DNA from: a virus
Taxonomy: Duplodnaviria; Caudoviricetes
Direction: 5' to 3' (one strand)
DNA length: 54,214 nt
Virus record (IMG/VR): IMGVR_UViG_3300002026_000174
Coordinates: 1 to 54,214 of that record
A model generated the notes under the pieces. The model was not told the DNA's origin, searched no databases, and saw only the letters and a program-made list of their open reading frames with translations. This document shows positions 14,191-44,924 of the stretch, in pieces. How positions within the stretch are numbered: the stretch's first letter is position 1; every line of letters begins with the position of its first letter. A program made the position numbers and the translations under genes.

Positions 14191-15306
14191 TTAAGAGTAG
14201 TACTCAGCTGCCACTTGCTTGGATACTTCCTTTAAAAGCGTATTGGTGGTGCCTGCAATATAGGGGGATAACACGATACGGTTGCTGATGCTCTTAAAGC
14301 CAAACATCGCTAAGACCTCACGGTTATCTTCGGTGTGGATATCGTAGTTCATGATCTCACCGACCACGGACTTGAGCTGGGCTGCAAACACGAATTTATC
14401 GCCTACACCAGCATTAACATCGACGGTGATGTAGACCTTGATCTCCATCGTATCGAGTTGTAGGTTGTTACCTTCGACCCGGTACTCGGAATCTACGGCG
14501 TTGGAGTCGACTTCTAGGTCGGTATGTTTGCTGCTGTGGCGCACCTCGGCGTCTAACTCTTTCGCGAGTTTCTTGAGCGTGGGTGACATGTCGGTGGTCG
14601 ATCCATTGTAGTAGATCTCATACTTGTCAATCACGCCTTGGAGCTTAGCTTTAGGAGAGATGTTGGCCATGTTAGCGAGCAGCTTAATCGTGTCCTCAGA
14701 GAGGTTAGTCAGGTCTGAGGTCTCATCGAGGATCGTGAAGAGTACCGTATCAGGCTCTACCGTAGTGCCAACTGGCAGCAGCTTGATCACGTTCTTCGTG
14801 AACTCCACCACAAAGGACTTGACCTTGGTGATCTTCGTAGAGAGTTTAGCAGAGAGCTTATGAGACAGCGCTGAGCTGTCCTCGTAGACCTCGTTATTGA
14901 GTGTCAGTGCCGTGGTGGCTAGAGCATTGATCTTCATGATGATGCGCTTGGGGTCTAACCAATCGCGCTCAAAGAAACCTGTGTTATAGGTGAGGATATC
15001 GTCTTTTCTGAAGGTATCACCAACAGCGAGATCAGAGATGACTTCGTGAGGGTAGCAAGTACCTTCAGCTAAGCCGTGTTGACGACCGGTGGGGATCGTG
15101 ACTTTAGTACCGTTCTTGTATTCCACGGTAAAGACTTTCTCGGTCTTGTGGATCACACGACCACTGTCTTTGGCCACGTAACAAAAGAGTTTACCGGCCC
15201 TGTAAGGCACGATATATTCATACCCTGTACGCAGGAGAGGCTGGTGGTAGTCTCTGGCTGCGATGGTGTGTGCGTTCTGGATGCCAACAAAATTGACCCG
15301 TTTTGG
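14191..15306 (-). CDS. Virion-type RNA polymerase beta subunit, 3' exon
   Basis: Frame extends upstream of the listed ORF to PKRVNFVGIQNAH...PLLRTGYE; contains YEDS and GDKF beta motifs; joins exon 1 ending HDD. Confidence 0.9.
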   Translation of the reverse strand, partial: PKRVNFVGIQNAHTIAARDYHQPLLRTGYEYIVPYRAGKLFCYVAKDSGRVIHKTEKVFTVEYKNGTKVTIPTGRQHGLAEGTCYPHEVISDLAVGDTFRKDDILTYNTGFFERDWLDPKRIIMKINALATTALTLNNEVYEDSSALSHKLSAKLSTKITKVKSFVVEFTKNVIKLLPVGTTVEPDTVLFTILDETSDLTNLSEDTIKLLANMANISPKAKLQGVIDKYEIYYNGSTTDMSPTLKKLAKELDAEVRHSSKHTDLEVDSNAVDSEYRVEGNNLQLDTMEIKVYITVDVNAGVGDKFVFAAQLKSVVGEIMNYDIHTEDNREVLAMFGFKSISNRIVLSPYIAGTTNTLLKEVSKQVAAEYYS

Positions 15307-15621
15307 CGATGTCTTCAGTCAAGTTCGTTAAACATGACCCGCTACTCATGGTAGCTGCTCTGGGTTTTCCCCAGATGTCGAGACTATATCTTCACCTTCC
15401 GATTAATGGTAAGGTGTTTCCTGTTTCCCCACCCACTCGGGCAGGTACTGGCTGATAAGGCCATAGTCGTTGAACGTTACGCATATCTCGCTTCACAGCG
15501 TTATGTAGCGTCTTCGCTGCGGATTACCCATCTATCTTTACCTCTTTTACCATACCCAGGTGATTAGTCTGGCCATAGATGTGTTTCCATCATCTACTTG
15601 GTGTGTAAAGCTCTCAGATGT

Positions 15622-16287
15622 CTAACTTAAACGAGATAAGACGTCGGATTTCTTTAAATTTCTTTTATAAGGTATTCGCTCAAGCGTTATACCCTTTTCT
15701 TTAAAGAATTCTTCCTTGATCTTATCATACTCTTGCACTGTGCCATTATTCCACTGTTGCCAGATATGTTTAGGGTTTTTATGTTGAGATCCGTCAGCTT
15801 CAATTACCAGATTCTTTTCTGGTATGTAAAAGTCAACTCTCAGCGGATAACCCGTTGTCCCTACCAGTCCATCAAATTTCTTTTCAGTTTCTATGTGAGA
15901 AAATTCCTGTTGAAGAAACTCTCCCACCTTTTCCTGAAATTTTGATTTTGGTTTGACAAATCCCAAATCACGGTTTAGTTCACTTACCTTCAAACCGTGT
16001 TTGGTAAACATCTTAGAACTATGTCCAATGCCAGTGCAAATCTCCTCCATTGCACAGTACTCATTCTTTTCCCGAATAAAGTCAGTGACTTTATTCTTCA
16101 AGATTTCTCCACCAACATCTTTAGCTATACAGCCTTGATTTTTTTTATCTGGAGATTTTGAAGCACAGGATCTAGAACAGTGGGATGTTTTCAAAGTAAC
16201 AGCATACCCGTCTTTAGGTAAATACCTCGTGCTGAATACTTTCCCACAGGTTGTGCAATTTTTTTCGTGCTCGTTTAAGTTAGACAT
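15622..16287 (-). CDS. Intron-encoded endonuclease 2 (zinc finger plus Vsr/DUF559-like PD-(D/E)xK domain)
   Basis: CTTC...HCSRSC finger and LRVDFYIPEKNLVIEADGSQH nuclease motif; AGGAG RBS before ATG 16287; AT-rich; lies between the two P4 strands of the intron. Confidence 0.8.
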   Translation of the reverse strand: MSNLNEHEKNCTTCGKVFSTRYLPKDGYAVTLKTSHCSRSCASKSPDKKNQGCIAKDVGGEILKNKVTDFIREKNEYCAMEEICTGIGHSSKMFTKHGLKVSELNRDLGFVKPKSKFQEKVGEFLQQEFSHIETEKKFDGLVGTTGYPLRVDFYIPEKNLVIEADGSQHKNPKHIWQQWNNGTVQEYDKIKEEFFKEKGITLERIPYKRNLKKSDVLSRLS

Positions 16288-16403
16288 CTGCCTGCTCCTA
16301 TGAATGTTTTTCATAGAATTTGCAGGTAGGATGTCCCCGCCAATTAAGGAAAATTTCATTGACTGTTTCTAGTCAATGAGACCGTCTGTCCATTTAAATT
16401 GCA

Positions 16404-17393
16404 TTAACTTGAATAGTAGCTATATCTGTGCCCGTCTGAAAATGTCGTTCTGTCGTTAGACTTAAGACGATAGTTCAGAGCCGTTGGTGAAATACCAAGA
16501 GCCTTTGCACATTCGTTTGCTGATTTAAAAACCCTTACTTCGCCAGTTTGACTGTTTGTAACGTTCACAGACCTTTCCCCTGTGTGTTTTTGCAGTTCCA
16601 AATATGGGTCAACAACCATACGCCATTCAGCGGGGTCATCGGTCCACTTAAGCTGGACAAATCCTGGCAGTACTGCTTGATCTGTTTTTTGTAACCAACC
16701 AGTTACGGTCGACGCAGAGACTTGTAAGTGATCGGCCAACTGACCCATCGTCTTGAACTCAAGTATTTCGTTCGTTAACACGTTCCTGGCTAAAACAGAC
16801 TTAGCTTTGCCGCCTTGTAAGGATCTAATCTTTACCTTTTCTACAGAGCACCATGGTTCGTCACTATGCGAGGGTCTGTATTGTTTACCCTCTGGAAAAA
16901 CCTTGTACTCACCTGCCTTTACCCGCCAGTTTATAAAGTCCTTAGAAACTCCAAACTCTCTGGCACATTCAACAATGCTCGGGTACTTTACAACAATTCC
17001 AGTGTTCACGTCTCTAACAGAAATAGGCATACATTTAGTTGTCAGTCCTAAACTACCCGCATGATGGGCATTGCCTTGATACGTTGTCCATTCCAGATTG
17101 TCTAATCGATCATCGCCTTTTATAGCGTTGAGATGGTTTACCACCATTTTACCAACATTAGGACCTGGGTGTTTGAACACATAACCTAGAAGTCGATGGC
17201 GACCCCATGTCAAAGTGACACCCTCGTCGTCGGTTAACCTAATGTTGACATATCCGTCTGGATTTCTGCTTCCTGTTAAAAACTCTCCACGCTTTTTGTT
17301 AAACACGTCTCCTTTTACCGTGATAGCGTAAGTACTGTAACCTGGTATGTCGTACAGACAAGGAAATTGCGTTTCTACGTTGCTACTATTCAT
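16404..17393 (-). CDS. Intron-encoded HNH homing endonuclease with NUMOD-type DNA-binding repeats
   Basis: HRL...VVNHLNAIKGDDRLDNLEWTTYQGNAHH HNH core; three helix-turn-helix repeats (YPSIVECAREFGVS, FKTMGQLADHLQVS, FKSANECAKALGIS); AGGAG RBS. Confidence 0.9.
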   Translation of the reverse strand: MNSSNVETQFPCLYDIPGYSTYAITVKGDVFNKKRGEFLTGSRNPDGYVNIRLTDDEGVTLTWGRHRLLGYVFKHPGPNVGKMVVNHLNAIKGDDRLDNLEWTTYQGNAHHAGSLGLTTKCMPISVRDVNTGIVVKYPSIVECAREFGVSKDFINWRVKAGEYKVFPEGKQYRPSHSDEPWCSVEKVKIRSLQGGKAKSVLARNVLTNEILEFKTMGQLADHLQVSASTVTGWLQKTDQAVLPGFVQLKWTDDPAEWRMVVDPYLELQKHTGERSVNVTNSQTGEVRVFKSANECAKALGISPTALNYRLKSNDRTTFSDGHRYSYYSS

Positions 17394-17458
17394 CTCAACT
17401 CCTACATGTATTCAAACAATAGGAGGGTTATCTTTAATGCTATTCAAATGACAGGTTA

Positions 17459-18429
17459 ATCATCGTGATCTACGCCAGGTACAAGTAAAGCTGAAGTGGA
17501 GAGTAACTTCGCTGGGTTAGTCTCGTAGTCTGTATTCGCTGTATCGATCATACCGCGCACGTTCTTAAAGCGAGCGTATGGAGTCAGAAAGGTGTTGATA
17601 CCCACGTCTGAGCTGTCTACCGTCGACTCTGAGGTTACCCCCATATCACTGGGTGTAAATTCCCGCAGTCGCCCTGAGATGGCTTCCTTGTTCAAGCCGT
17701 CTTGTCCGACCAAGGTCACGGACTCCATCTCTTTCAGATCGTTGATGGGGTTGATATCCTCGGTGAGCTTCTTGGAATTGTCCATGACGATGTTGTTCCA
17801 CACCGCGTAGGGTGAGAGCTCGATCTTATTGCTGCGGTTGGTCTTGAACTTATAGTTACGAATGCTCTCTGAGAGAGCTCGGTACATCAGGCCAGGGATG
17901 CGCTCATAGCCCCTGATACGGGTATAGTTAGAGTCATTGACATCAGGGTGATGCATGTCTGTGAGGAGCTGGTTAGCCCTTAGGAGCAGAGCGATGTATT
18001 CGGTTGGCTCTTGCATCTCTTGTAAAACATCCATCGTGATGGGGTCCAGGAAGATGTCTCGGAGCATGTCAAGCTCTTTGAGGTAGAGCATGTTGAAATC
18101 ACGCTCTTCTAAGAGGAGCAAGTAAATGTTCTTCTTGTTGAACTCCGAGAGGGTGTACTCTTTGGTGAAGTCCTTGAAGTAGAGGAAACCAGCCAAAAGC
18201 AGGGAAGCTTCCTTGTTGGCTTTAGAGAAGATGAGCTTGTAGTCGCTGAACTTGAGTTGGTATTCGTCCTTGGCCAGCTTGTACTGCTTGTTCGATGGGA
18301 TGATCGTGGGATTAGCCCGGGTGATCTTGATGAGGTTGGACAACCCTAAGTAATACCCAAAGGCCACACCTAAGGGCATATCTTTACCAAGCACCTTGAT
18401 GTTGGTGAACGAGGTGGGTAGTTCACTTT
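17459..18429 (-). CDS. RNA polymerase beta subunit, middle segment (end of exon 1, downstream of frame break)
   Basis: Frame open from SELPTSFTNIKVLGKD; RIRGYER, INPINDLKE, SESTVDSSDVG motifs; ends GVDHDD at the 5' splice site. Confidence 0.85.
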
Positions 18430-27496: not shown

Positions 27497-29023
27497 CTAC
27501 CTCTTATTAAAAAACGGCGAGAGAACGAGGCTCATGGGTAGTTTTTTGTTGCCCGAGAGGTTAGAGGTACTACCAACTAGCAATACAGCGGCAGTGGCAT
27601 TAAAAGGCACACAAAAGATTCGACCATCAGGTAATAAAACACCGTTACCCAACCCGACTGTAGAAAATACCCCAGGTGCGATGATTTGGGTATTGGTGAC
27701 CGGGTCATAGATTTTGGAGTTGCTAGTAAGCCAGGCGTGGCAATAGACCCGGCCATCAGGTAAAAGTGTACCGCTATGTATACCATCTGATCCAGGATAT
27801 GTGCCAGCGGGTGTGGACACGGTGTTGGTGACCGGGTCATAGATGCGTGCCGTCGTGGAGTTGTAAGGGACACAAAACACCCGACCATCGGGGAGCAGCA
27901 CCCCACCGACAAATGCGGAGTTACCCGGGTAAGTTCCGTTTGGTATAACGAGGGTATTAGCCACCGGATCATAGATGCGCGCTGTGGTGCTGGTACCCGG
28001 GACTAAAAACACACGACCGTCGGGTAAAAGCACGCCTCCATAAAACGCACTGGATCCAGGGTAGACACCAGGAGGATTACTGAGACTGTTGGTGGCGGGG
28101 TTATAGATTAACCCAATTGTCTCGTTACACGGCACACAAAAGACCCGGCCATCTGGTAGCAACACCCCACCCCAATAGCTACCCTCCAAAGCAGCCGTAG
28201 ACCCTCCCGGGGTGCTCAGCGTGTCGGTCATGGGGTCATAGATGCGCGCTGTCGAAGAACCGTTAGGTACACAAAACACCCGACCATCTTTCAACAACAC
28301 GCCACCACAAAACGCACTTACCCCAGGGTACGTCCCGGTTGGCGTGACCAGTGTATCGGTGACGGGGTCATAGATCCGTGCGGTAGTCGAACCGCTAGGT
28401 ACACAAAACACCCGACCATCGGGCAGCAATACCCCACCGTGAAATCCGGAAGCGCCAGGATACACGCCGCTGGCCGTTACTGGTGCATAACTCGCCAGTG
28501 GGGCTTTACGCACCTCGGTGATGATCGCCTGCAACTTGCTCTGAAAGGTCGGCCAGCCCGACCCCACTTGTCCGTTGACGGCCGTGTTCCACTGGGGAAA
28601 GCCCGTCGTCAGATCGGTCACGTTGGCGGTATTGGCCACAGCTGCCGCAATGGACGCCGTCATCTGTTGTTTCGTGGTGATCTGCATCGCCACCGTCGCA
28701 TCGCCTGACAACGCCAACGCCCCTGTCATCGTCCCACCGGCCACGGGCACTTTCCCCGTGATCGTGAGCGCATCCACATACCCCTTGCTCGCTGCATGCA
28801 GTGCCAAGCTCGGCGTCGCAAAGAGTGTCACATTACCCGTGAACGCTGTACCTGAGAGACTTGCCAAGCCATTCAAGCGACTCTGCACGTTCCCCACAAT
28901 CCCACTCAAGTAGTTCATCTGCACCGCTGTCACGTTCAAAGCGTCCAGAAACGCCTGAGCTGCTGCTTGCAAACCGCTGCTACCGTTAGCAGGCGCCAGC
29001 ATGGTCTCAAAAGTTAACCGCAT
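27497..29023 (-). CDS. Second Kelch-propeller fibre/receptor-binding protein (paralog of 23058-24593)
   Basis: Same architecture; shares NVTDLTTGFPQWNTAVN and the C-terminus NLSGNKKLPxxLVLSPFFN; AGGAG RBS. Confidence 0.85.
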   Translation of the reverse strand: MRLTFETMLAPANGSSGLQAAAQAFLDALNVTAVQMNYLSGIVGNVQSRLNGLASLSGTAFTGNVTLFATPSLALHAASKGYVDALTITGKVPVAGGTMTGALALSGDATVAMQITTKQQMTASIAAAVANTANVTDLTTGFPQWNTAVNGQVGSGWPTFQSKLQAIITEVRKAPLASYAPVTASGVYPGASGFHGGVLLPDGRVFCVPSGSTTARIYDPVTDTLVTPTGTYPGVSAFCGGVLLKDGRVFCVPNGSSTARIYDPMTDTLSTPGGSTAALEGSYWGGVLLPDGRVFCVPCNETIGLIYNPATNSLSNPPGVYPGSSAFYGGVLLPDGRVFLVPGTSTTARIYDPVANTLVIPNGTYPGNSAFVGGVLLPDGRVFCVPYNSTTARIYDPVTNTVSTPAGTYPGSDGIHSGTLLPDGRVYCHAWLTSNSKIYDPVTNTQIIAPGVFSTVGLGNGVLLPDGRIFCVPFNATAAVLLVGSTSNLSGNKKLPMSLVLSPFFNKR

Positions 29024-31693: not shown

Positions 31694-32632
31694 TTACTCT
31701 TTGAACGCACCGACGACGCCCTCTAAAGCCTTCAAGAACTCAGCACCTTTGTCTTTCTTGTTCAGGCGAGCGACGATCTGACCCAAACTACTCTTGCTGT
31801 AGCTTTTGCTCTCCAAAGCGGCTTGGACCATGCTCACAAACACTGGAGGGTATTCTAAGCCCACCATGATGTTTTCCTTGGCGTTCAGACCAAACCAGCT
31901 GTTGGCAATCACGGTGCTGAGCACGGCCATGTTCAGGCCTTTCAAGCGCACGTTATCGGTGACGGCGTAGCATGCCTCACAGAAGCTCTCGGCGTTACTG
32001 AGTTTGTGGCCGACCTTCTTGAAGATGTCACCCATCAACTCTTCGCTCAGTAAGAACTCGCTCTTAAAGCGAATGTAGAGCTTATCGGCCTCATCTTGGT
32101 CCAACTTCTCTACAAAGAGACTGTGGTAATACAGCAGTGCGAGCACCTTCAACTTGAACGTATCGCCTAGATCCAGGCCAAATCGCTTGGCTAAATTATC
32201 TGATAACCAGGCGCTAAATACGACATAGCCGAATTTGAGGTCTCTGAGTTCACCCATCCGACCCACAAACCAGAGATTGCTCAAGATATACTTGTTGACG
32301 GTGAAGGTGTACTCGCTCTCGTTTCTCACCTCGATGTCCGTCTTGTCCTTATTGGGCTTGGTGCAGAACCGTAAATCCAATACACTGATCTTGTTGCTCG
32401 CATCCACGAGTGCCTGAGTGATGTGATCAATGTCTTGCTCAAGCGTGCTGAGCCCACACAGCACCACTGGGTCCAAATACACCTCAGCGTTACTAAAGCT
32501 CTTTAACTTCAACGCGAGCTTTTCCTTGATAAAGTAGTAGTCAATGATGACGTACTTCCTGACGTTCTCCAATACCTTATCCCGGTTGAGTATGCTCAAA
32601 TAGGACGTGTCATACGCCGTCTTGTTAATCAT
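31694..32632 (-). CDS. Virion structural protein divergent from the sheath gene
   Basis: 312-aa ORF (TAYDT N-terminus, SWFG, LEYPP); arrangement resembles phiKZ-like tail clusters. Confidence 0.7.
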   Translation of the reverse strand: MINKTAYDTSYLSILNRDKVLENVRKYVIIDYYFIKEKLALKLKSFSNAEVYLDPVVLCGLSTLEQDIDHITQALVDASNKISVLDLRFCTKPNKDKTDIEVRNESEYTFTVNKYILSNLWFVGRMGELRDLKFGYVVFSAWLSDNLAKRFGLDLGDTFKLKVLALLYYHSLFVEKLDQDEADKLYIRFKSEFLLSEELMGDIFKKVGHKLSNAESFCEACYAVTDNVRLKGLNMAVLSTVIANSWFGLNAKENIMVGLEYPPVFVSMVQAALESKSYSKSSLGQIVARLNKKDKGAEFLKALEGVVGAFKE

Positions 32633-32770: not shown

Positions 32771-34876
32771 ATGCAAGACATCGTCAACGCGGCTCCCATG
32801 GTCATTGATCTTGGCACTCAAGATCTCTCGACTCGGGTCGTTCCCCAGAACTCGCTGAGCATCCCTCAGCATCTGCCCAAGCTCTACATCTTCGCAGAGA
32901 AAGGCCCCATCGGTCCCGCGTACGTTGATTTCGCCAGCGTGTCTCTGACACAGCTCTATGGCGATGAGACCTTCAACCTGCTCAACAAGTACTTCACTCA
33001 CCAGACCGTTTTTGCTTCCGCCATCGCTGGCGCCGGTAACAACTGCGTCATCCAACGCGTCGTCCCTGATGACGCTCAAGATGCTGCCAACGTGACCTTG
33101 TACCTGGACGTGCTTCCCACCCAAGTGCCTCTGTACCAAAAGAACACCGATGGCTCTGTGGTTGTAGATGCCAACAACCTGCCTATCCCTCAAAAAGACG
33201 GCACCGGTGCCGTCATCAACATCCCTGGCTTCAAAGTCAAGTGGGTCGCTGATCACAGTGAAGCCGCAGTCGGTGCTTACACGCCTGGCCTGAAAACGGT
33301 TCGCCCTGGCACTCAGATCGATACCACCACTTCCGTGCAGTCCACTCAGACCCCGGTCTTTGAGTTCTTCGCCAAATACGCCGGTGAATACGGCAACAAA
33401 CTCGCTATTCGCATGTTCCCAGCTTTGCAGTCGGATATGACCCCATTCCCCGACTACATCCTGACCGACATGAAGAACTTCCCCTACTACTTCCAGTTGG
33501 TCAAGCTCATCAATGCCGACACTGGCAAAGTCCAAGCCCTCACCAATTCCGCCCTGATTACTTCGACGAAGTTCATCCTGGACAACAACGTCCTGGATAT
33601 CAACACCGAAGAGCGCATCGGCCTGGAAACTGCGGTCAACACTGGCAAGGCCGAATACGCTATCCCCGAGGAGACCCGTCAACTCGGTGGTCTGTATGTC
33701 TACAAAAGCAACCTGAGCACCGCTTTGCAGCAGCTCTATGATGCCGAAAAGATCATCTCTGACAGCCACAAAGATGCGGTCATCAACAACACCGATAACA
33801 ACCTCTTCGCGCTGAACCTGATCAACTTCGTGAGCTCCAATGGCTCGCCTTACCAGTCGATCAAACTCATCGATGACGTGGACTCCATTCGCCTGACCAA
33901 GAACACCAACGTGTACTTGAAAGGTGCCTCGGACGGCACGATCAGCTTGGGTGCTTTGGACGCTTTGGTGGCACAGGACCTGGAGCTCTACAACAGCGCG
34001 ATTTCTGAATACAACGACTTGGTGATGCATCCGGAATCCATCATCTATGACTCCGGTTTCACGCTGGCTACGAAAAAGGCTTTTGCCAAGTTCATCTCTC
34101 GCCGTAAAGACACCTTTGTGGTGCTCTCGACCATGGCGCACGATAATCCCTCAGTGGATCTGAACTCGCAGTACTCCGTAGGCGTGGCGCTGAAGACGAT
34201 GTTGGAACTCTACCCTGAGTCCTCGGCTTTTGGTACGCCAGTTACTCGCGGCATGATTTCGATCGGCAGTGGTAAATTGGTTACCTCGAACTACGACCAG
34301 CGCGTCCCGCTGACCTATGAAGTCGCATATATGGCCGCTCGGTACATGGGTGCGTCTAACGGTGCTTGGAAGAATGGTTTTGCGTTTGACCACGCGCCTA
34401 ATTCCATCGTGACCCAACTCAAAGACATCGATATCACTTGGGTACCAGCGAGCACCCGCAATAACTTGTGGACGGTTGGGTTGAACTTCGTGCTCAACTA
34501 CAAACCACGCACGCAGTTCTTCCCCGCAATGAAGACAGTCTACTCTGGTGGTGACACATCTGTACTCAACAGCTTCTTTACGGCAGTGGCCATCAGTTTT
34601 GTCACGAAGATCATCCATGCCAGCTGGCGTGAGTATACCGGCGCAATAAGCTTCACAAATGCCCAACTGGAAGAAGCTGTCAACGGCTTCATTGCTGAAA
34701 AAGTGAAGGACAAATTTGACGGAAAATTTGTGATTATCCCTAACGTAACCGTCACGGAACGCGACAATCTCAATGGTTTCAGTTGGACTACGGAGGTGAA
34801 ATTTTTTAGTAATAACATGCGCACAGTTTGTACGGCATTCGTCAGTGCCCGTCGTATGAGCGATCTGGCTCAGTGA
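32771..34876 (+). CDS. Tail sheath protein (phiKZ gp29-like)
   Basis: 701 aa; IVNAAP, PQHLP, YDSGF motifs; AGGAG RBS; strong codon bias; upstream of the tube gene. Confidence 0.85.
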   Translation: MQDIVNAAPMVIDLGTQDLSTRVVPQNSLSIPQHLPKLYIFAEKGPIGPAYVDFASVSLTQLYGDETFNLLNKYFTHQTVFASAIAGAGNNCVIQRVVPDDAQDAANVTLYLDVLPTQVPLYQKNTDGSVVVDANNLPIPQKDGTGAVINIPGFKVKWVADHSEAAVGAYTPGLKTVRPGTQIDTTTSVQSTQTPVFEFFAKYAGEYGNKLAIRMFPALQSDMTPFPDYILTDMKNFPYYFQLVKLINADTGKVQALTNSALITSTKFILDNNVLDINTEERIGLETAVNTGKAEYAIPEETRQLGGLYVYKSNLSTALQQLYDAEKIISDSHKDAVINNTDNNLFALNLINFVSSNGSPYQSIKLIDDVDSIRLTKNTNVYLKGASDGTISLGALDALVAQDLELYNSAISEYNDLVMHPESIIYDSGFTLATKKAFAKFISRRKDTFVVLSTMAHDNPSVDLNSQYSVGVALKTMLELYPESSAFGTPVTRGMISIGSGKLVTSNYDQRVPLTYEVAYMAARYMGASNGAWKNGFAFDHAPNSIVTQLKDIDITWVPASTRNNLWTVGLNFVLNYKPRTQFFPAMKTVYSGGDTSVLNSFFTAVAISFVTKIIHASWREYTGAISFTNAQLEEAVNGFIAEKVKDKFDGKFVIIPNVTVTERDNLNGFSWTTEVKFFSNNMRTVCTAFVSARRMSDLAQ

Positions 34877-34890
34877 TATGACATAACCAG

Positions 34891-34922
34891 ACAGGTGATC
34901 GTTGAGAACTTCGATCACCTGT
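34891..34922 (+). terminator. Hairpin after the sheath gene
   Basis: 11-bp stem ACAGGTGATCG/CGATCACCTGT. Confidence 0.55.
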
Positions 34923-34968
34923 TTGCAATACCTTGAACCAAAGCCAGCTAATTATTAGGAGTATTTAA

Positions 34969-35028
34969 ATGAGTCGATTGTCAGATGCTTTAGTCTCTGG
35001 GGCATACGCTCGGGATCGTTTATTTTAA
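34969..35028 (+). pseudogene. Orphaned copy of the tail-tube gene 5' end (19 aa)
   Basis: TTAGGAGT RBS then MSRLSDALVSGAYARDRLF*, matching the tube N-terminus MSRLSDALLTGAY. Confidence 0.85.
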
Positions 35029-36336
35029 ACCTGTTGAAAACATTTTATTTAACTTGTCCATTAGAAAAGATTCTATTTTGTTGTTATCAAGAACAACATA
35101 TGGAACAGTGATGAGTTTACCATTAAACAATTCAACTAATCTTTTTTTACAATAATCAGATACTTTTTGTTCTTTGAACCCATCCAAATCTCTGTGAAAG
35201 AACTCCACATATCTGTAGTGTTGCATGCCATGAAACTCAATGAAGACGTTGTGGTCAGGTAAGTAAAAGTCATATCTGAATTTGTTATTTGGTAGTTTGT
35301 GCTCCCGAACATAGTTAACGCCATGTTTGTCCAAAATTTCAGCTATCTTTAATTCCCCTTTAGAATCACTGCATTTTCTACACCCGCATTTGTCGTTAAC
35401 GTGCACAGACGGAGTTTGTTCAAACGGGCCGTGTATAGGGCAGATTATTGTTACTTTATCAAGGTAACCAAAATACTCAACCTTGCTGTAGTCGTATCTG
35501 TCGCCATGCACCTCTCTAGCTTTAGCGATGAACTCCTCTGTGGTCGTTCTTCTGTTTTCAAAATTACAATCAGGACAAATACTGGTAATGTGCACGGCCG
35601 GGGTTTGTTGAAACTCGCCGTGTATAGGGCAGATTATTGTTACTTTAGTGGTATTATTTATGTATACCGTTTTACTATAATCATACTTGTCGCCATGCTT
35701 TTCGCGGGCTTTAGCTATGAACTGATCTAAGCCTAACGACCTATCGTTTACCCCACATAGGTAACATTTTTTACCTTCTAAATGCGTGGTTGGTTTTTGT
35801 TGAAACGGGCCGTGCGCCGGGCAGATTATAGATACAGGCACTCTTGATGTGACGTAGTTAACTTGGCTGTAGTCGTATCTGTCGCCATGTACCTTTCTAG
35901 CTTTAGCGATGAACTCCTCTGCGTTTGATCTTATTTTTACAGAGCGACAAGCAGGGCAGTTAAACCCTCTGAGGAAATGAAAGGGGAGATATTGAAATTC
36001 CCCGTGCTCTTTACAAATAACGGTTATTTTAGAATCTCGCGAGGTGTAGTTAACTTGGCTGTAGTCGTATCTGTCGCCATGCACCTTTCTAGCTTTAGCG
36101 ATGAACTCCTCTGTGGTCAGTCTAACACACATAGGTGAGCATAGTGGACAATCACTGTCTATATGTATAGATGGTTTCTGCTGGAACTCCCCGTGAATCG
36201 GACACAATATCGTGACAGGAGTTTGCATGTCTTTGTAACACATTTTGCTATAGTCGTACTTGTCCCCGTGTTTAGCCTTGGCTTTAAGAATGAATTTCTT
36301 AGCATTTAATGCTATTGTTACTTTCATATTTTTCAT
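35020..36336 (-). CDS. Free-standing putative homing endonuclease (five zinc-ribbon repeats plus Vsr/DUF559-like nuclease)
   Basis: Five FIAKARxxHGDxYDYS...IICPxHGxFxQxPxxH...CxxC repeats; C-terminal FRYDFYLPDHNVFIEFHGMQHY; AT-rich; antisense to the structural operon. Confidence 0.85.
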   Translation of the reverse strand: MKNMKVTIALNAKKFILKAKAKHGDKYDYSKMCYKDMQTPVTILCPIHGEFQQKPSIHIDSDCPLCSPMCVRLTTEEFIAKARKVHGDRYDYSQVNYTSRDSKITVICKEHGEFQYLPFHFLRGFNCPACRSVKIRSNAEEFIAKARKVHGDRYDYSQVNYVTSRVPVSIICPAHGPFQQKPTTHLEGKKCYLCGVNDRSLGLDQFIAKAREKHGDKYDYSKTVYINNTTKVTIICPIHGEFQQTPAVHITSICPDCNFENRRTTTEEFIAKAREVHGDRYDYSKVEYFGYLDKVTIICPIHGPFEQTPSVHVNDKCGCRKCSDSKGELKIAEILDKHGVNYVREHKLPNNKFRYDFYLPDHNVFIEFHGMQHYRYVEFFHRDLDGFKEQKVSDYCKKRLVELFNGKLITVPYVVLDNNKIESFLMDKLNKMFSTGLK

Positions 36337-36362
36337 TTTTTAACCTATCTTAGGAGTGTGTA

Positions 36363-37235
36363 ATGAGTAGACTTTCAGACGCTTTATTGACTGGAGCGTA
36401 CAACAACAGTAATCAAAACATAGACATGCTAGATCTTCAGTACGGCGGCCAAAATGGGTATGCACCCGATTTGACCAGCTGGGTTTCCAACCAATCATAT
36501 ACATCCAGACCGCTTGTCTGCGTCATGCTTGAAGCACCACGCCTTTTCACCGCCATGCCCAACCCCGAGAAATGGGTTGCCAGCTTGAAGTCGCTCTTTG
36601 AGCTGCATGCACGCACCATCGATGGCTTCAACGCCGGCCTCAAGGTCGACTTTGACGAGCATCCCGTGGGTGGAGCTGGTGAGCAGCACCAAGAGTTCAC
36701 CAACGTCACCCGTGAGCGTACGCAGCCCAAGTTCACCTTCGTGGAGAAGTACGGTCGCCCGATCCAGACGTTGTTGGAGTACTGGATTCGCTACGGTATG
36801 ATGGATGAGAACAGCAAATTTGCGCTGGCCTCTACCTTGACCGGTGGCCAAACCACTGACCTGCTGGCCGATTGGTACACTGCGACTTGCCTCTTCTTTG
36901 TGCCAGATCCTCTGCATAAAAAGGTCGACAAGGCGTGGATCACCACCAACATGGCACCTATGTCTACCGGTGACATCACCGCCAAGCGTGACCTGACCAC
37001 CGCACAAGAGATCCTGACCTTGGACATCGAGTTCACGGGTATCTCTCAGTACGGTCTGGGCGTGAAGAACTTTGCCCAAGGGATCTTGGATGGCATCAAC
37101 ATCAACAACGCTGATCCTTACATGCGTCCCGCCTTTGTGAGCGGTGTCTCCGCTGACGTGGCTGCTGCTAACAAGGGTTACAAGCAGCGCGCTGAAGAGG
37201 TCGGTAGCAGCTCTGTGACCAACATGTCCCGATAG
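36363..37235 (+). CDS. Tail tube protein (phiKZ gp30-like)
   Basis: 290 aa downstream of sheath; GGQNG, EKYGRPI, WIRYGMMD motifs; TTAGGAGT RBS. Confidence 0.8.
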   Translation: MSRLSDALLTGAYNNSNQNIDMLDLQYGGQNGYAPDLTSWVSNQSYTSRPLVCVMLEAPRLFTAMPNPEKWVASLKSLFELHARTIDGFNAGLKVDFDEHPVGGAGEQHQEFTNVTRERTQPKFTFVEKYGRPIQTLLEYWIRYGMMDENSKFALASTLTGGQTTDLLADWYTATCLFFVPDPLHKKVDKAWITTNMAPMSTGDITAKRDLTTAQEILTLDIEFTGISQYGLGVKNFAQGILDGININNADPYMRPAFVSGVSADVAAANKGYKQRAEEVGSSSVTNMSR

Positions 37236-41352: not shown

Positions 41353-42434
41353 ATGAACGATGAAAAATTTAACTGGGTACCTGTTGTTTCCTCGTCTGGT
41401 AAGCCACTCATGCCATGCCATCCGGCTAGGGCTAGAGATCTTATCCGTAAAGGAAAAGCGGTACCTAAGTGGAAAAAACAGCTATACTACATTCAACTTG
41501 TAGATAGGGTTGATGGTGATTTACAACCAGTTGCCTGTGGAATCGACCCGGGTAGTAAACGCGAAGGTTATACAGTTAAATCAGCTACTAAAACGTATCT
41601 GAACATTAATTCGCATGCCTGTGGTTACGTTAAAGACAAGGTTAGCTTTAAGCGCGTTATGAGAAAACTCAGACGTAGTCGGCACACCCCGTGTCGTGCT
41701 AAGAGAAGCAACAGATCAAGATCACTAAACTTCATACCGCCATCAACTCGAGCCAGATGGGGGTTAAAATTAAGAATAAGTGCATGGCTTTCTAAGTTCT
41801 ACCCTATATCGGCGTTTGTAGTGGAGGATATTATTTACGAGACAATTGAGGGTAAAAATATCCGCAGCAACAGTAGTTTCTCCCCGCTTCAAGTCGGTAA
41901 AAAATGGTTCTACGAACAACTAAGCAAATTAGCAAATGTGTTTACTAAGGTCGGTAGGGATACATATAACCTCCGACGGGACCACGGGTTAATCAAAACT
42001 AGATTAAAAATGGCTGAAGATTTCTCAGCACATTGCGTCGACTCGTGGGTATTGGCCAATTGGCATACCGGTGGACACCTAAAGCCGGATAATCAAACCC
42101 TCATGATACTAAAGCCAATAGACTACCGGAGAAGACAACTTCACGTTGCTACGCCCGTAAAAGGTGGGTGTAGACGGAGGTATGGCGGAACTATGTCCTC
42201 TCTATGGTGGGTGGGTATACCGAGGACAGAGTTACACTCACAGACACAGTATACGGAAAAAGAAAAACACAACAGGCTAAACTCAGCGATTGTTTGATTC
42301 TAGCACCATCCCCGTGGCTTTATCACCCCGTCAGACATTCTAAATCCATAGACAAAAAGATACGCAATGTAAGTATTTTGAGAGCTAAAAAGGGTAGAGT
42401 TGTGGTTGCCAGCGAAACCACGACGTCCCTCTAA
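41353..42434 (+). pseudogene. isrB: IsrB-like RNA-guided nickase (PLMP + split RuvC, no HNH), C-terminus frameshifted as sequenced
   Basis: KPLMPCHPARAR, GIDPGSK, Arg-rich bridge helix, VVEDI, SAHCVDSW; homology to locus 2 continues in ORF 42204-42434 (VGG..., SPWLY) after a missing segment. Confidence 0.8.
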
Positions 42435-43475: not shown

Positions 43476-44924
43476 TTACTTCTTGCCTTTCACAAGTTTT
43501 GGTGTAGTTTTGTCAAGCCAAAAAGGAATATATGTGCCATTTGCCATATTCACGAGGTCCATCGTAGAGAGGAAGGGTTTATCAGCGGTATCGTTCTTGA
43601 ACGTCCACCAGTCACGTGTATCTAGGAGCACGTCCCAGTCATAGGTCTCTTTGAGTTTATCGTAGAGTTCTTTAGGTTCAGGAATCGTGATCGTGAGATT
43701 GCGCCAATGCTGCTTCATCTGCAAGAGATCAGCGGTGATCTTAATGGCACGACGCAGCTGAGGGTTAGCGTCGATGGTTTGCCTCACTGTCGTGCGACTG
43801 ATTTTGACATCAGGTAACAGGGTCAGGCTATAAGACATCAGTGTGCCTTCTAGGCCAAAGCGGTTGTTCTCTTTGAGGTAGTGAAACTCCGTCAGGGTGG
43901 GTAGCACCCCTTCAGCTTGTGAGACGATGATCTCCAGGTTCACACCAGAGGGACCTGACTTGTTCCTCAGTTGACGGATGGTGACGATGTTGAGATCGTT
44001 GTTCTCGGTCTCACCGGAGTCACGCGTCTTAGGATACTCAGGACCTTTAGTGCCTTGGTTGGTGAGCTGAGACAAACCTAGAGTCTGCCAAAACAGGTTC
44101 GGTAGGAAGTAGAACTTGTCAGTCACGCCTTTGAGCTTATCACCCATCTTCATGTGCTGAAGCTTCTTAGTCGGTGTCGAGTAGGGTCCTGCTCCGATGG
44201 CCATGTCAGTGCCTAAGTGGGCTGTCATGAGCATGTAGTGCCCTGAGCTATTACACAAGCTAGGCAGCTCCATCAGTAAACGTGTCTTAGCCAAACCTAG
44301 ACGCATATGGATGGTGTTACCCCCAGAGTCACCCAGCTCGTTCTTGTTCTGGATCTCTTGGATATCGGCTGTCTCGAACTCGGAGATGCTGTCGATCTCA
44401 CCGAAGGTCGGAAAGATGGTTTTGATGATCTTCCCTTCCGGATCTAGGAAGGGAGTATCGATCATATAGTCCTTCTTGTTCTTGAGCTTATCGCCCTTGA
44501 GGAAGGTTTTCAGGAGCTCGTACCAGTCATTGCCCATGTGCATCGTCTTATCAGTGATGGACAGAATCTTGGCTTTGACGATGTCGAGGTCTTTGAAGTA
44601 GGAGAAGCGGTTAGATAAGGTATTGAAGCGCTCAGGGCTGGCGCTCATCTCGGTATCGTACACGCTCATATAGGGTGAAAACCCACTGGCTGCGACTGCA
44701 TTAGCGGCTGAGAGCATCATGTAGTGCGAGATCGTGGACTTGTAAGTGTTACCACGACCTGCGACGGCGGTGAGTACACCTAAGCCACCGTTGAGGATGG
44801 ATTCGCCGTGGACGCCTTTGACGTAGGAGCCTGTGGGGATATCCAGGAGAGCACCTACGTTGTACATGACTTTCACGGAGTCAATCTCTTTGAAAGCGGG
44901 TTTGCTGTTGAACATCATCTGCAT
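43476..44924 (-). CDS. uvsX: UvsX/RecA-like recombinase (phiKZ-type)
   Basis: Walker A GRGNTYKS, YDTE, IDSISE Walker B, RNKSG; AAGGA RBS. Confidence 0.8.
   Translation of the reverse strand: MQMMFNSKPAFKEIDSVKVMYNVGALLDIPTGSYVKGVHGESILNGGLGVLTAVAGRGNTYKSTISHYMMLSAANAVAASGFSPYMSVYDTEMSASPERFNTLSNRFSYFKDLDIVKAKILSITDKTMHMGNDWYELLKTFLKGDKLKNKKDYMIDTPFLDPEGKIIKTIFPTFGEIDSISEFETADIQEIQNKNELGDSGGNTIHMRLGLAKTRLLMELPSLCNSSGHYMLMTAHLGTDMAIGAGPYSTPTKKLQHMKMGDKLKGVTDKFYFLPNLFWQTLGLSQLTNQGTKGPEYPKTRDSGETENNDLNIVTIRQLRNKSGPSGVNLEIIVSQAEGVLPTLTEFHYLKENNRFGLEGTLMSYSLTLLPDVKISRTTVRQTIDANPQLRRAIKITADLLQMKQHWRNLTITIPEPKELYDKLKETYDWDVLLDTRDWWTFKNDTADKPFLSTMDLVNMANGTYIPFWLDKTTPKLVKGKK

Follow-up and report, generated by a model that had tools for sequence, protein, structure and literature searches.

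A stranded tail-tube gene start beside an antisense homing endonuclease gene suggests one-sided intronless homing in an uncultured phiKZ-like jumbo phage

Free-standing homing endonucleases of T-even phages, as the relevant sections of a T4 review describe them, cut away from their own gene, and the stretch between gene and cut is co-converted (PMC2988022). The same sections describe a 'one-sided' form of homing, in which illegitimate double-strand-break repair at microhomologies takes place if just one flank is homologous, and which was obtained, with illegitimate junctions, in the T4 td intron system when one exon was homologous (PMC2988022). In fungal mitochondria, mobile open reading frames (ORFs) have produced hybrid genes, the cases described in the source being atp6 of Allomyces macrogynus and atp6, atp9, cox2 and nad3 of Glomus sp. 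(PMC3630166). Here we analyze a locus in a 54-kb fragment of an uncultured phiKZ-like jumbo phage (IMG/VR record IMGVR_UViG_3300002026_000174; 54,214 nucleotides, referred to below as the window, with a G+C content (GC) of 0.50). At this locus, an antisense gene for a predicted Vsr-like homing endonuclease lies between a 19-codon ORF that repeats the start of the tail-tube gene, hereafter the stub, and the working tail-tube gene. Our analysis indicates that the stub is the resident-type start and that the working gene opens with a foreign allele; the arrangement probably arose by intronless homing that imported the tube 5′ end of a donor. The right side of the import would go back to a homologous crossover and the left side to an illegitimate join.

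The locus resembles the fungal mobile-ORF hybrids in that an intronless endonuclease ORF sits in a protein gene and a carried foreign gene end takes over, and in the cases described there the adjacent native relic is likewise closest to a sister taxon (PMC3630166). The carried and native copies are 64-81% identical at the nucleotide level in the fungal hybrids reported in that source (PMC3630166), against 78% here. The fungal hybrids, as described, have their C-terminal end replaced, often in frame with a LAGLIDADG or GIY-YIG enzyme, in organelle genomes, whereas in the phage locus a virion structural gene has its N-terminal end replaced, together with a ribosome-binding site (RBS) and start codon, and the Vsr-like enzyme is encoded on the opposite strand. 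By this analogy, the phage locus appears to mirror the fungal hybrids at the other end of the gene.

One-sided homing with illegitimate double-strand-break repair was reportedly obtained by Parker, Belisle and Belfort in 1999 in an engineered td-intron system. According to the T4 review, one-sided td homing combines homology on one side with an ectopic junction on the other and insertion at a new site (PMC2988022), features that the present locus shares. The td system was engineered, whereas the present locus would be a trace left by that route in nature, in a jumbo phage that has not been cultured. The intronless homing of SegF, SegG and MobE, in the review's account, offers further likenesses: an endonuclease gene placed between genes, a neighbour cut at a distance (as would have happened here), a neighbour made chimeric by co-conversion, foreign composition and sporadic distribution (PMC2988022). 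The T-even events that it describes are two-sided conversions with no duplicate left (PMC2988022), whereas the present locus has a non-homologous left junction and a relic start. It also differs from a group I intron-encoded endonuclease, since no structured self-splicing RNA was detected and the ORF is antisense. Full-text literature searches, which did not extend to subscription journals or supplements, and term searches within PMC10448857 and PMC2988022 turned up no phage in which a relic or duplicated gene start lies next to a gene of this kind.

An earlier note on this DNA, made from the letters alone, had described an RBS and start at 34969 that are cut off after 19 codons by the antisense endonuclease gene, and a second RBS and start at 36363; both are in the sequence (Table 1). 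The duplicate that it had seen was recovered by local alignment of the tube 5′ end with the 1462-nt gap, which gave a score of 27, while 100 shuffles gave a mean of 10.7, a standard deviation of 1.2 and a maximum of 14. The extent needed correction, the tube-homologous part of the stub covering 16 codons (to the GAT at 35015-35017) and not 13. Both codon strings cited in that note are likewise present, although their assignment could be read as reversed: the stub at 34969 reads CGA TTG TCA GAT, and the copy at 36363 reads AGA CTT TCA GAC. Repeat detection paired 34968-35007 with 36362-36401 (40 nt, 78% identical) and, around the RBS, 34955-34968 with 36350-36363 (14 nt, 86%). The RBS match adds little on its own, because AGGAGT is the usual strong RBS of the structural genes of this phage and is also found at the sheath gene and at the gene in 27497-29023. 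Across the 13 codons shared by the stub and the working copy, there are five synonymous differences and two residue replacements.

At the left junction, the resident-type sequence ends at 35017 and the stop codon of the endonuclease gene occupies 35020-35022; the stub ORF and the antisense ORF share 9 nt at their 3′ ends. Tube homology past stub codon 16, beneath the endonuclease 3′ end, was not found with 30 relatives (best z 2.7, median -0.2), and a by-eye tube match beyond that codon was accordingly rejected as chance. At the right junction, the change from foreign to resident-type sequence falls somewhere from tube codon 39 to about codon 59, which makes the right end of the putative imported block approximate. 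The divergent start codons of the endonuclease and tube genes are 26 nt apart; the promoter of the endonuclease gene would therefore lie antisense inside the imported tube 5′ end.

The arrangement is real and not an assembly artefact, because error-free contigs of independent runs bridge both junctions. Contigs of runs X1, X2, X4 and X5, from three studies, span the left and/or the right junction with 0 differences: the left one is bridged by X1 (34430-35457) and X5 (34914-35064), and the right one by X1 (36089-36955), X2 (36186-36417) and X4 (36172-36375).

Tube homologues numbered 641 in a collection of 5.8 billion proteins, and our comparisons use the best 120 of these 641 together with phage AgentSmith, which gives 121 relatives. 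Alignment with relatives, proposed in the earlier note as the way to recognize the ancestral N-terminus, points to the upstream copy as the resident-type start. The 16 residues of the stub match 16 of 16 in P0001, which is the closest tube homologue among the best 120 (89% identical overall) and the sole full match among the 121 relatives. P0003 shares 14 of the 16 residues, six relatives share 13 and most share 10-12, while P0256, a member of the 90% cluster of P0001 and with it one of the two closest homologues, shares 15. The stub also pairs codon for codon with the tube genes of relatives.

The start of the working gene has a different affiliation. Residues 46-240 of its product are 98% identical to P0001, against 62% for residues 1-45, whose best match among the relatives is 69%. 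It is thus the stub that has the same closest relative as the gene body. Against both P0256 and P0001, maximum likelihood places the breakpoint after residue 39: identity to P0256 is 0.64 up to this residue and 0.95 beyond it (Fisher p 2e-7), and identity to P0001 is 0.59 and 0.94, respectively (Fisher p 7.5e-8), both p values being uncorrected for about 260 positions scanned. The strongest breakpoint in control comparisons between relatives reached p 9e-4 and lay at the opposite end of the protein. The identity gap between N-terminus and body was -0.27 for 12 pairs involving the window and -0.105 +/- 0.061 for 66 pairs of relatives, so the tube N-terminus is not generally so variable. Residues 14-21 of the working copy also include an insertion of one codon. 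When residues 1-55 were used alone as the query, 12 word-sharing candidates were obtained, with a best foreign match of 69%; the 100% match, P0241, comes from the same phage in another assembly. These comparisons argue that the first 39 or so codons of the working gene are a foreign allele from a source lineage absent from the databases, and that the synonymous differences between the two starts reflect divergence between donor and recipient lineages. They do not favour the proposal that the replacement start is a recoded duplicate, given a divergent stretch of about 39 codons with a one-codon indel and an identity to the closest relatives of 59-64% within it versus 94-95% beyond.

The base composition of the region was examined across the 33 genes of the window. 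The endonuclease gene has a GC of 0.39 and a GC at third codon positions (GC3) of 0.42, and the neighbouring genes have a GC3 of about 0.67. In the tube gene, GC3 is 0.48 over the first 50 codons versus 0.72 in the body, and the resulting difference of -0.24 is the most negative of all 33 genes (mean -0.002, standard deviation 0.099), with GC3 climbing at codons 51-61. In the sheath gene, the last 85 codons have a GC3 of 0.51 versus 0.70 in the body, and this difference of -0.19 is tied for the lowest (mean -0.033, standard deviation 0.078). The AT-rich codon choice that had been judged by eye at the sheath 3′ end and the tube 5′ end is thereby borne out. Because the breakpoint at residue 39 coincides with a matching GC3 shift, the flanking tube gene appears to contain a co-conversion tract. 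The evidence on the sheath flank is suggestive of a conversion tract: against the closest sheath protein, P0122, a breakpoint after residue 586 separates an identity of 0.916 from one of 0.774, with a Fisher p of 4e-5 that is uncorrected for about 670 positions scanned and weaker than the tube signal. Among relatives, the 3′ region of the sheath is no more variable than the rest of the sheath.

Table 1. Coordinates of features at and around the tail-tube locus in the window
Feature	Position	Strand	Basis or remark
gp28-like vertex protein gene	31694-32632	minus	
Tail sheath gene, 701 aa	32771-34876	+	phrog_3242 tail sheath, E 7e-174; PF20961 phiKZ gp29PR
3′ part of sheath gene, ~115 codons; possible left-hand conversion tract	34529-34876	+	GC3 lowered, divergence raised
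Inverted repeat 3′ of sheath stop	34888-34925	+	14-nt arms, 10-nt loop, 93% complementary
RBS TTAGGAGT of stub	34955-34962	+	The resident tube gene's own
Stub ORF, 19 codons	34969-35028	+	ATG 34969, TAA 35026-35028; last 3 codons junction-derived
Relic of resident tube gene	34969-35017	+	First 16 codons and one more base at 35017
Putative imported block: endonuclease gene, 26-nt spacer with RBS, foreign first ~39 tube codons	35018-36479		Low GC, residue-39 breakpoint, GC3 rise
Predicted free-standing homing endonuclease gene, 438 aa	35020-36336	minus	phrog_559, phrog_681, phrog_9084; PF05265 DUF723
C-terminal Vsr-like (EDxHD-type) nuclease domain, 128 residues (predicted)	35023-35406	minus	
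Five tandem DUF723/CapR-like zinc-finger repeats; presumed DNA-recognition array	35397-36336	minus	Period 189-192 nt
RBS TTAGGAGT of working tube gene	36350-36357	+	Presumably imported
Working tail-tube gene, 290 aa, putative chimera	36363-37235	+	PF23806 Phage_TTP_14, E 9e-102, residues 3-284
Foreign N-terminal 39 codons of working tube gene	36363-36479	+	ATG 36363

The endonuclease looks intact: its repeats keep their ligand pattern, the modelled fold is Vsr/I-Bth0305I-like, and none of the conserved acidic and histidine residues is missing. The zinc-finger repeats make up the N-terminal three quarters of the protein, and the C-x2-H ... C-x2-C pattern is retained in the translation of all five. 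DUF723 is treated by Barth et al. 2023, in the part of the paper that concerns it, as a CapR-like zinc-finger DNA-binding domain that is repeated in phage homing endonucleases (PMC10448857). The nuclease domain was modelled with AlphaFold2 from 18 homologues, with a mean predicted local distance difference test score (pLDDT) of 89. The top Foldseek match of this model was the catalytic domain of I-Bth0305I (3R3P; chain 3R3P_B, E 2e-4, TM-score on target 0.74), and Vsr was also matched (1CW0_A at E 3e-4, and 1VSR; probability 1.00). In the alignment of 18 homologues, D46, E57, G60, H63, D84 and K87 are invariant and E18 nearly so. These residues fit the composite E-D-x-H-D motif that is described, in the relevant passages, for the I-Bth0305I family (PMC3239194), the equivalence of D46, H63 and D84 to D196, H213 and D222 of I-Bth0305I being based on counted spacing, without superposition. 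By sequence, the nuclease domain gave 0 matches at E<=1 in a phmmer search of the PDB and noise only in NCBIfam, while Pfam recognized DUF723 alone in the protein and gave no NUMOD match. On the strength of the model, we predict that the protein is a homing endonuclease of the EDxHD/Vsr type whose DNA-binding array is of another kind.

Conserved E, D, H and D residues are present in the protein, and their 17-residue spacing from D to H equals the spacing in I-Bth0305I as counted from the residue numbers given in the paper (PMC3239194). I-Bth0305I, as characterized there, is intron-encoded with an N-terminal NUMOD/helix-turn-helix region (PMC3239194), whereas the present protein is free-standing with five DUF723/CapR-like fingers. 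The systems of Barth et al. 2023, so far as the paper describes them, share with this locus an endonuclease gene at the boundary of differently related sequence and a repeated zinc-finger array (PMC10448857); the arrays discussed there belong to T5orf172 (GIY-YIG-like) enzymes, and the sections on them mention no relic or duplicated start (PMC10448857). No Rfam family reached its gathering score in the window, and the only match in 34700-36700 was a chance snoRNA-like one with an E of 0.11. The endonuclease gene thus appears to be free-standing, outside any detectable intron or intein.

The distribution of the arrangement was assessed at 66 loci of tube relatives, from 2 named phages, 22 viral contigs and 42 metagenome contigs, some contigs being in both collections. 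The sheath end and the tube start are both visible in 58 of them, and in 52 of these 58 the gap between the two genes is -3 to 189 nt (38 nt in phage AgentSmith). The other six (L090, L091, L105, L111, L112 and L122) contain inserts of 338-1628 nt with unrelated ORFs, so the sheath-tube spacer is an insertion hotspot. Most of the ORFs in these inserts belong to no Pfam family. A second tube start within 2 kb upstream, whose occurrence in endonuclease-free relatives the earlier note had named as a point that would count against it, was seen in 0 of 60 loci, all of them at most 76% identical (best BLOSUM62 local score 28, versus 55 in the window). A homologue of the endonuclease occurs at one of the 66 loci, L111 (40% identity, 438 aa, plus strand), and no flanking duplicate was found beside it. 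Of 68 testable viral-contig loci with homologous endonucleases, only L038 had a strong flank duplicate, which proved to be of another kind (below). On present data, the arrangement is not a family habit, because neither set of loci contains a clear case.

Two loci deserve separate mention. L038 was considered as a second example because of a flank-duplicate z of 12.8 and was rejected: the signal comes from tandem endonuclease paralogues that share a promoter and leader. At L038:3914-7665, in a 334-kb phage contig, the paralogues of 409 and 832 aa and the preceding gene have a near-identical promoter/leader and first codons, which looks like a repeated expression cassette. In the insert of L090, which also has a 265-aa minus-strand ORF with weak helix-turn-helix matches, a comparison of L090:3951-3992 with L090:4483-4523 shows an RBS and about seven tube-start-like codons ahead of an ORF of 68-80 aa within the insert. 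This possible relic has a local score of 18 versus a shuffle maximum of 15, is much weaker than the stub, and may be due to chance or to a shared leader.

We consider it probable, while short of certain, that the locus originated by intronless homing with a homologous right crossover and an illegitimate left join. The donor of the free-standing endonuclease gene would have been a more distant co-infecting relative of lower GC, in which this gene lay just upstream of the tube gene. The tube gene of the recipient would have been broken near its 5′ end, at codon 16 or slightly 3′ of it and before the crossover point. The right end would then have been repaired by homologous recombination with the donor tube gene, with the crossover at about codons 39-59, and synthesis would have run through the first 39 or so codons of the donor, its RBS and the endonuclease gene. 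The left end, with no usable homology past the endonuclease gene, would have been sealed by an illegitimate join at a point 2 nt away from the stop codon of that gene, and this join would have stranded the RBS and 16 codons of the recipient as a dead 19-codon stub. Splicing would be needless, since the working chimera has its own start. The stretch of the imported allele with the indel at residues 14-21 would be an obvious candidate for the basis of target immunity. That the enzyme made the break, where it cut, that the new 5′ end is resistant and that the repair was one-sided are parts of the proposal that we infer. The sequence agrees with the earlier suggestion of a splicing-free invasion of the tube 5′ end, in that the insertion follows codon 16 and no splicing element was detected, and the gene was indeed restored, as had been supposed, with the second RBS and start keeping it whole.

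Several observations weigh against this origin. The donor of the N-terminus was not found, the best match being 69%, and the closest homologue of the endonuclease is 50% identical in viral contigs and at most 47% in prokaryote genomes, so that no donor was found there either. Megablast against 50,697 phage records gave no match, and scans of viral, metagenome and genome contigs with the tube protein and profile gave nothing closer than 76% protein identity. The DNA of relatives was thus compared at no more than 76% protein identity, which leaves the ancestry of the stub resting on protein N-termini, and 16 residues are a short basis for judging it. A joint that skips the endonuclease gene, as expected of an allele lacking it, was absent from the contigs aligned, though contigs drop rare variants. 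The enzyme may also cut elsewhere, for example at the sheath 3′ end. Finally, the sheath 3′ end looks converted too, which a single one-sided event does not predict; this suggests either a separate event at the hotspot or a later arrival of the stub-bearing module by two-sided homing.

The second of these possibilities leads to an explanation in which the stub, the endonuclease gene and the replacement start form a heritable module that spreads by two-sided homing and that the phage of the window received in finished form. The left homology arm would then consist of the stub, the intergenic region and the sheath 3′ end, while the foreign start, being resistant to cleavage, would serve as a built-in repair patch. 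Conversion-like tracts on both flanks (at sheath residue 586 with its GC3 drop, and at tube residue 39) speak for it, as do the unaltered state of the module in runs dated 2014 to 2023 from three studies and the spread of fungal mitochondrial mobile ORFs together with a carried gene end, as related in the source on those elements (PMC3630166). Nevertheless, the module is known from one genome, with 0 of 60 relatives' loci and 0 of 68 loci of homologous endonucleases showing it, the sheath tract is modestly significant before correction, and this tract resembles P0123, from the contig of P0001, no more closely (identity 0.62-0.72 over its last windows) than it does P0122 or P0121. We therefore regard such an inheritance as unlikely. 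A bolder claim of the same kind, that a self-sufficient mobile cassette, made up of the stub, the foreign start and the antisense endonuclease gene between them, invades the 5′ end of an essential gene without splicing, would have the cleavage-resistant RBS and N-terminus serve as the repair patch, the promoter lie antisense within this patch and the native start act as the left arm; we put it forward as a tentative idea with perhaps a slightly better chance than the inherited module. If it were true, the cassette would be the phage counterpart, at the opposite gene end, of the fungal mitochondrial mobile ORFs, and relic starts would be common and overlooked in phage genomes, each marking the cleavage neighbourhood of an endonuclease.

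Other explanations dispense with cleavage by the enzyme or with a foreign source. Co-infecting phages may have recombined, illegitimately on one side and homologously on the other, so that the endonuclease gene was merely part of the exchanged block and its cut was uninvolved. Jumbo-phage structural genes are mosaic, with the nearest relative shifting along the sheath and at tube residues 241-290, and the six inserts among 58 loci make the sheath-tube spacer a general target, but endonuclease-driven co-conversion would be expected to give a block of just this geometry, with one edge 2 nt away from the endonuclease stop and the other a few dozen codons inside the neighbour, and phage nuclease genes are reported at exchange boundaries in the paper of Barth et al. 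(PMC10448857); we judge this passive origin quite improbable. Still less probable is a tandem duplication of the tube 5′ end in place, followed by rapid recoding of the working copy to escape cleavage. The 13 shared codons do differ mostly synonymously, with five such differences versus two replacements, yet the divergence reaches codon 39, past the 16 duplicated codons, and includes an indel, while the remainder of the tube gene is 94-98% identical to relatives. Moreover, the GC3 of the tube 5′ end shifts toward that of the endonuclease gene, and a pseudogene stub should decay, whereas this one is 16/16 identical to a relative. An intron, with the stub as exon 1 and the endonuclease gene inside a self-splicing element, has hardly any credibility in our assessment. 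Endonuclease genes in essential phage genes often do lie in group I introns, and joining the stub near residue 18 of the working gene would give the usual protein length, but Rfam gives no intron match, the endonuclease gene runs antisense, and a consensus RBS, an ATG and a complete conserved N-terminus that matches the Pfam model from position 3 are all present in the downstream copy.

Under the favoured origin by one-sided homing, a selfish endonuclease gene would have settled inside an essential phage structural gene with neither intron nor intein, the invading DNA bringing a complete replacement start. The relic stub would be a rare physical footprint of such an event, bracketing the break or join between codon 16 and about codons 39-59. 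The locus would also join one-sided T4 homing, the nucleases found at phage mosaic boundaries and the fungal mobile ORFs that carry gene ends. For genome annotation, it implies that short ORFs with a strong RBS beside endonuclease genes may be displaced starts, and that the N-termini of neighbouring genes may be foreign. The predicted enzyme itself, with five CapR/DUF723 zinc fingers and a Vsr-like nuclease, has an uncharacterised architecture.

The tube gene is followed, in order, by genes for an S80 prohead protease, a small SNase-like protein and the large terminase. The inverted repeat behind the sheath gene is possibly a terminator or an RNA hairpin; no T-run follows it, the terminator scan made no call there, and the promoter and terminator scan of the window as a whole gave counts no higher than in shuffles. 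Downstream of the large terminase gene, 41353-42297 (+) encodes an HNH-like protein (phrog_2214, phrog_32617) with a GC3 of 0.41, and the UvsX-like gene at 43476-44924 has a lowered GC3 (-0.13) at the end adjacent to it.

A virion RNA polymerase beta-like gene on the minus strand, within 14191-18394, is in pieces: 17456-18394 matches positions 740-1050 of phrog_3148, and 14191-15210 matches positions 1083-1420. Between the pieces lie two low-GC3 endonuclease genes, one of HNH type (16404-17393) and one of the same Vsr-like family as the gene between the tube starts (15622-16359), together with a 411-nt non-coding spacer (15211-15621). Neither an Rfam intron nor a flanking duplicate was found at this locus, whose pieces may represent a split gene or may be separated by an intron of an undescribed kind.

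Two observations concern variants of the tube gene. In a 4,900-bp contig from the other assembly of the same phage (P0241/P0254), the tube gene is called as two ORFs, one of 208 aa with a frameshifted tail and one of 94 aa, which indicates a frameshift around residue 175, due either to a variant or to a sequencing error. A single low-depth contig of run X2 departs from the window at 28 of 189 positions in the 3′ part of the tube gene (window 36941-37129); that sample also contains a related strain that differs in the tube C-terminal region, a finding that fits the nearest-relative shift at residues 241-290.

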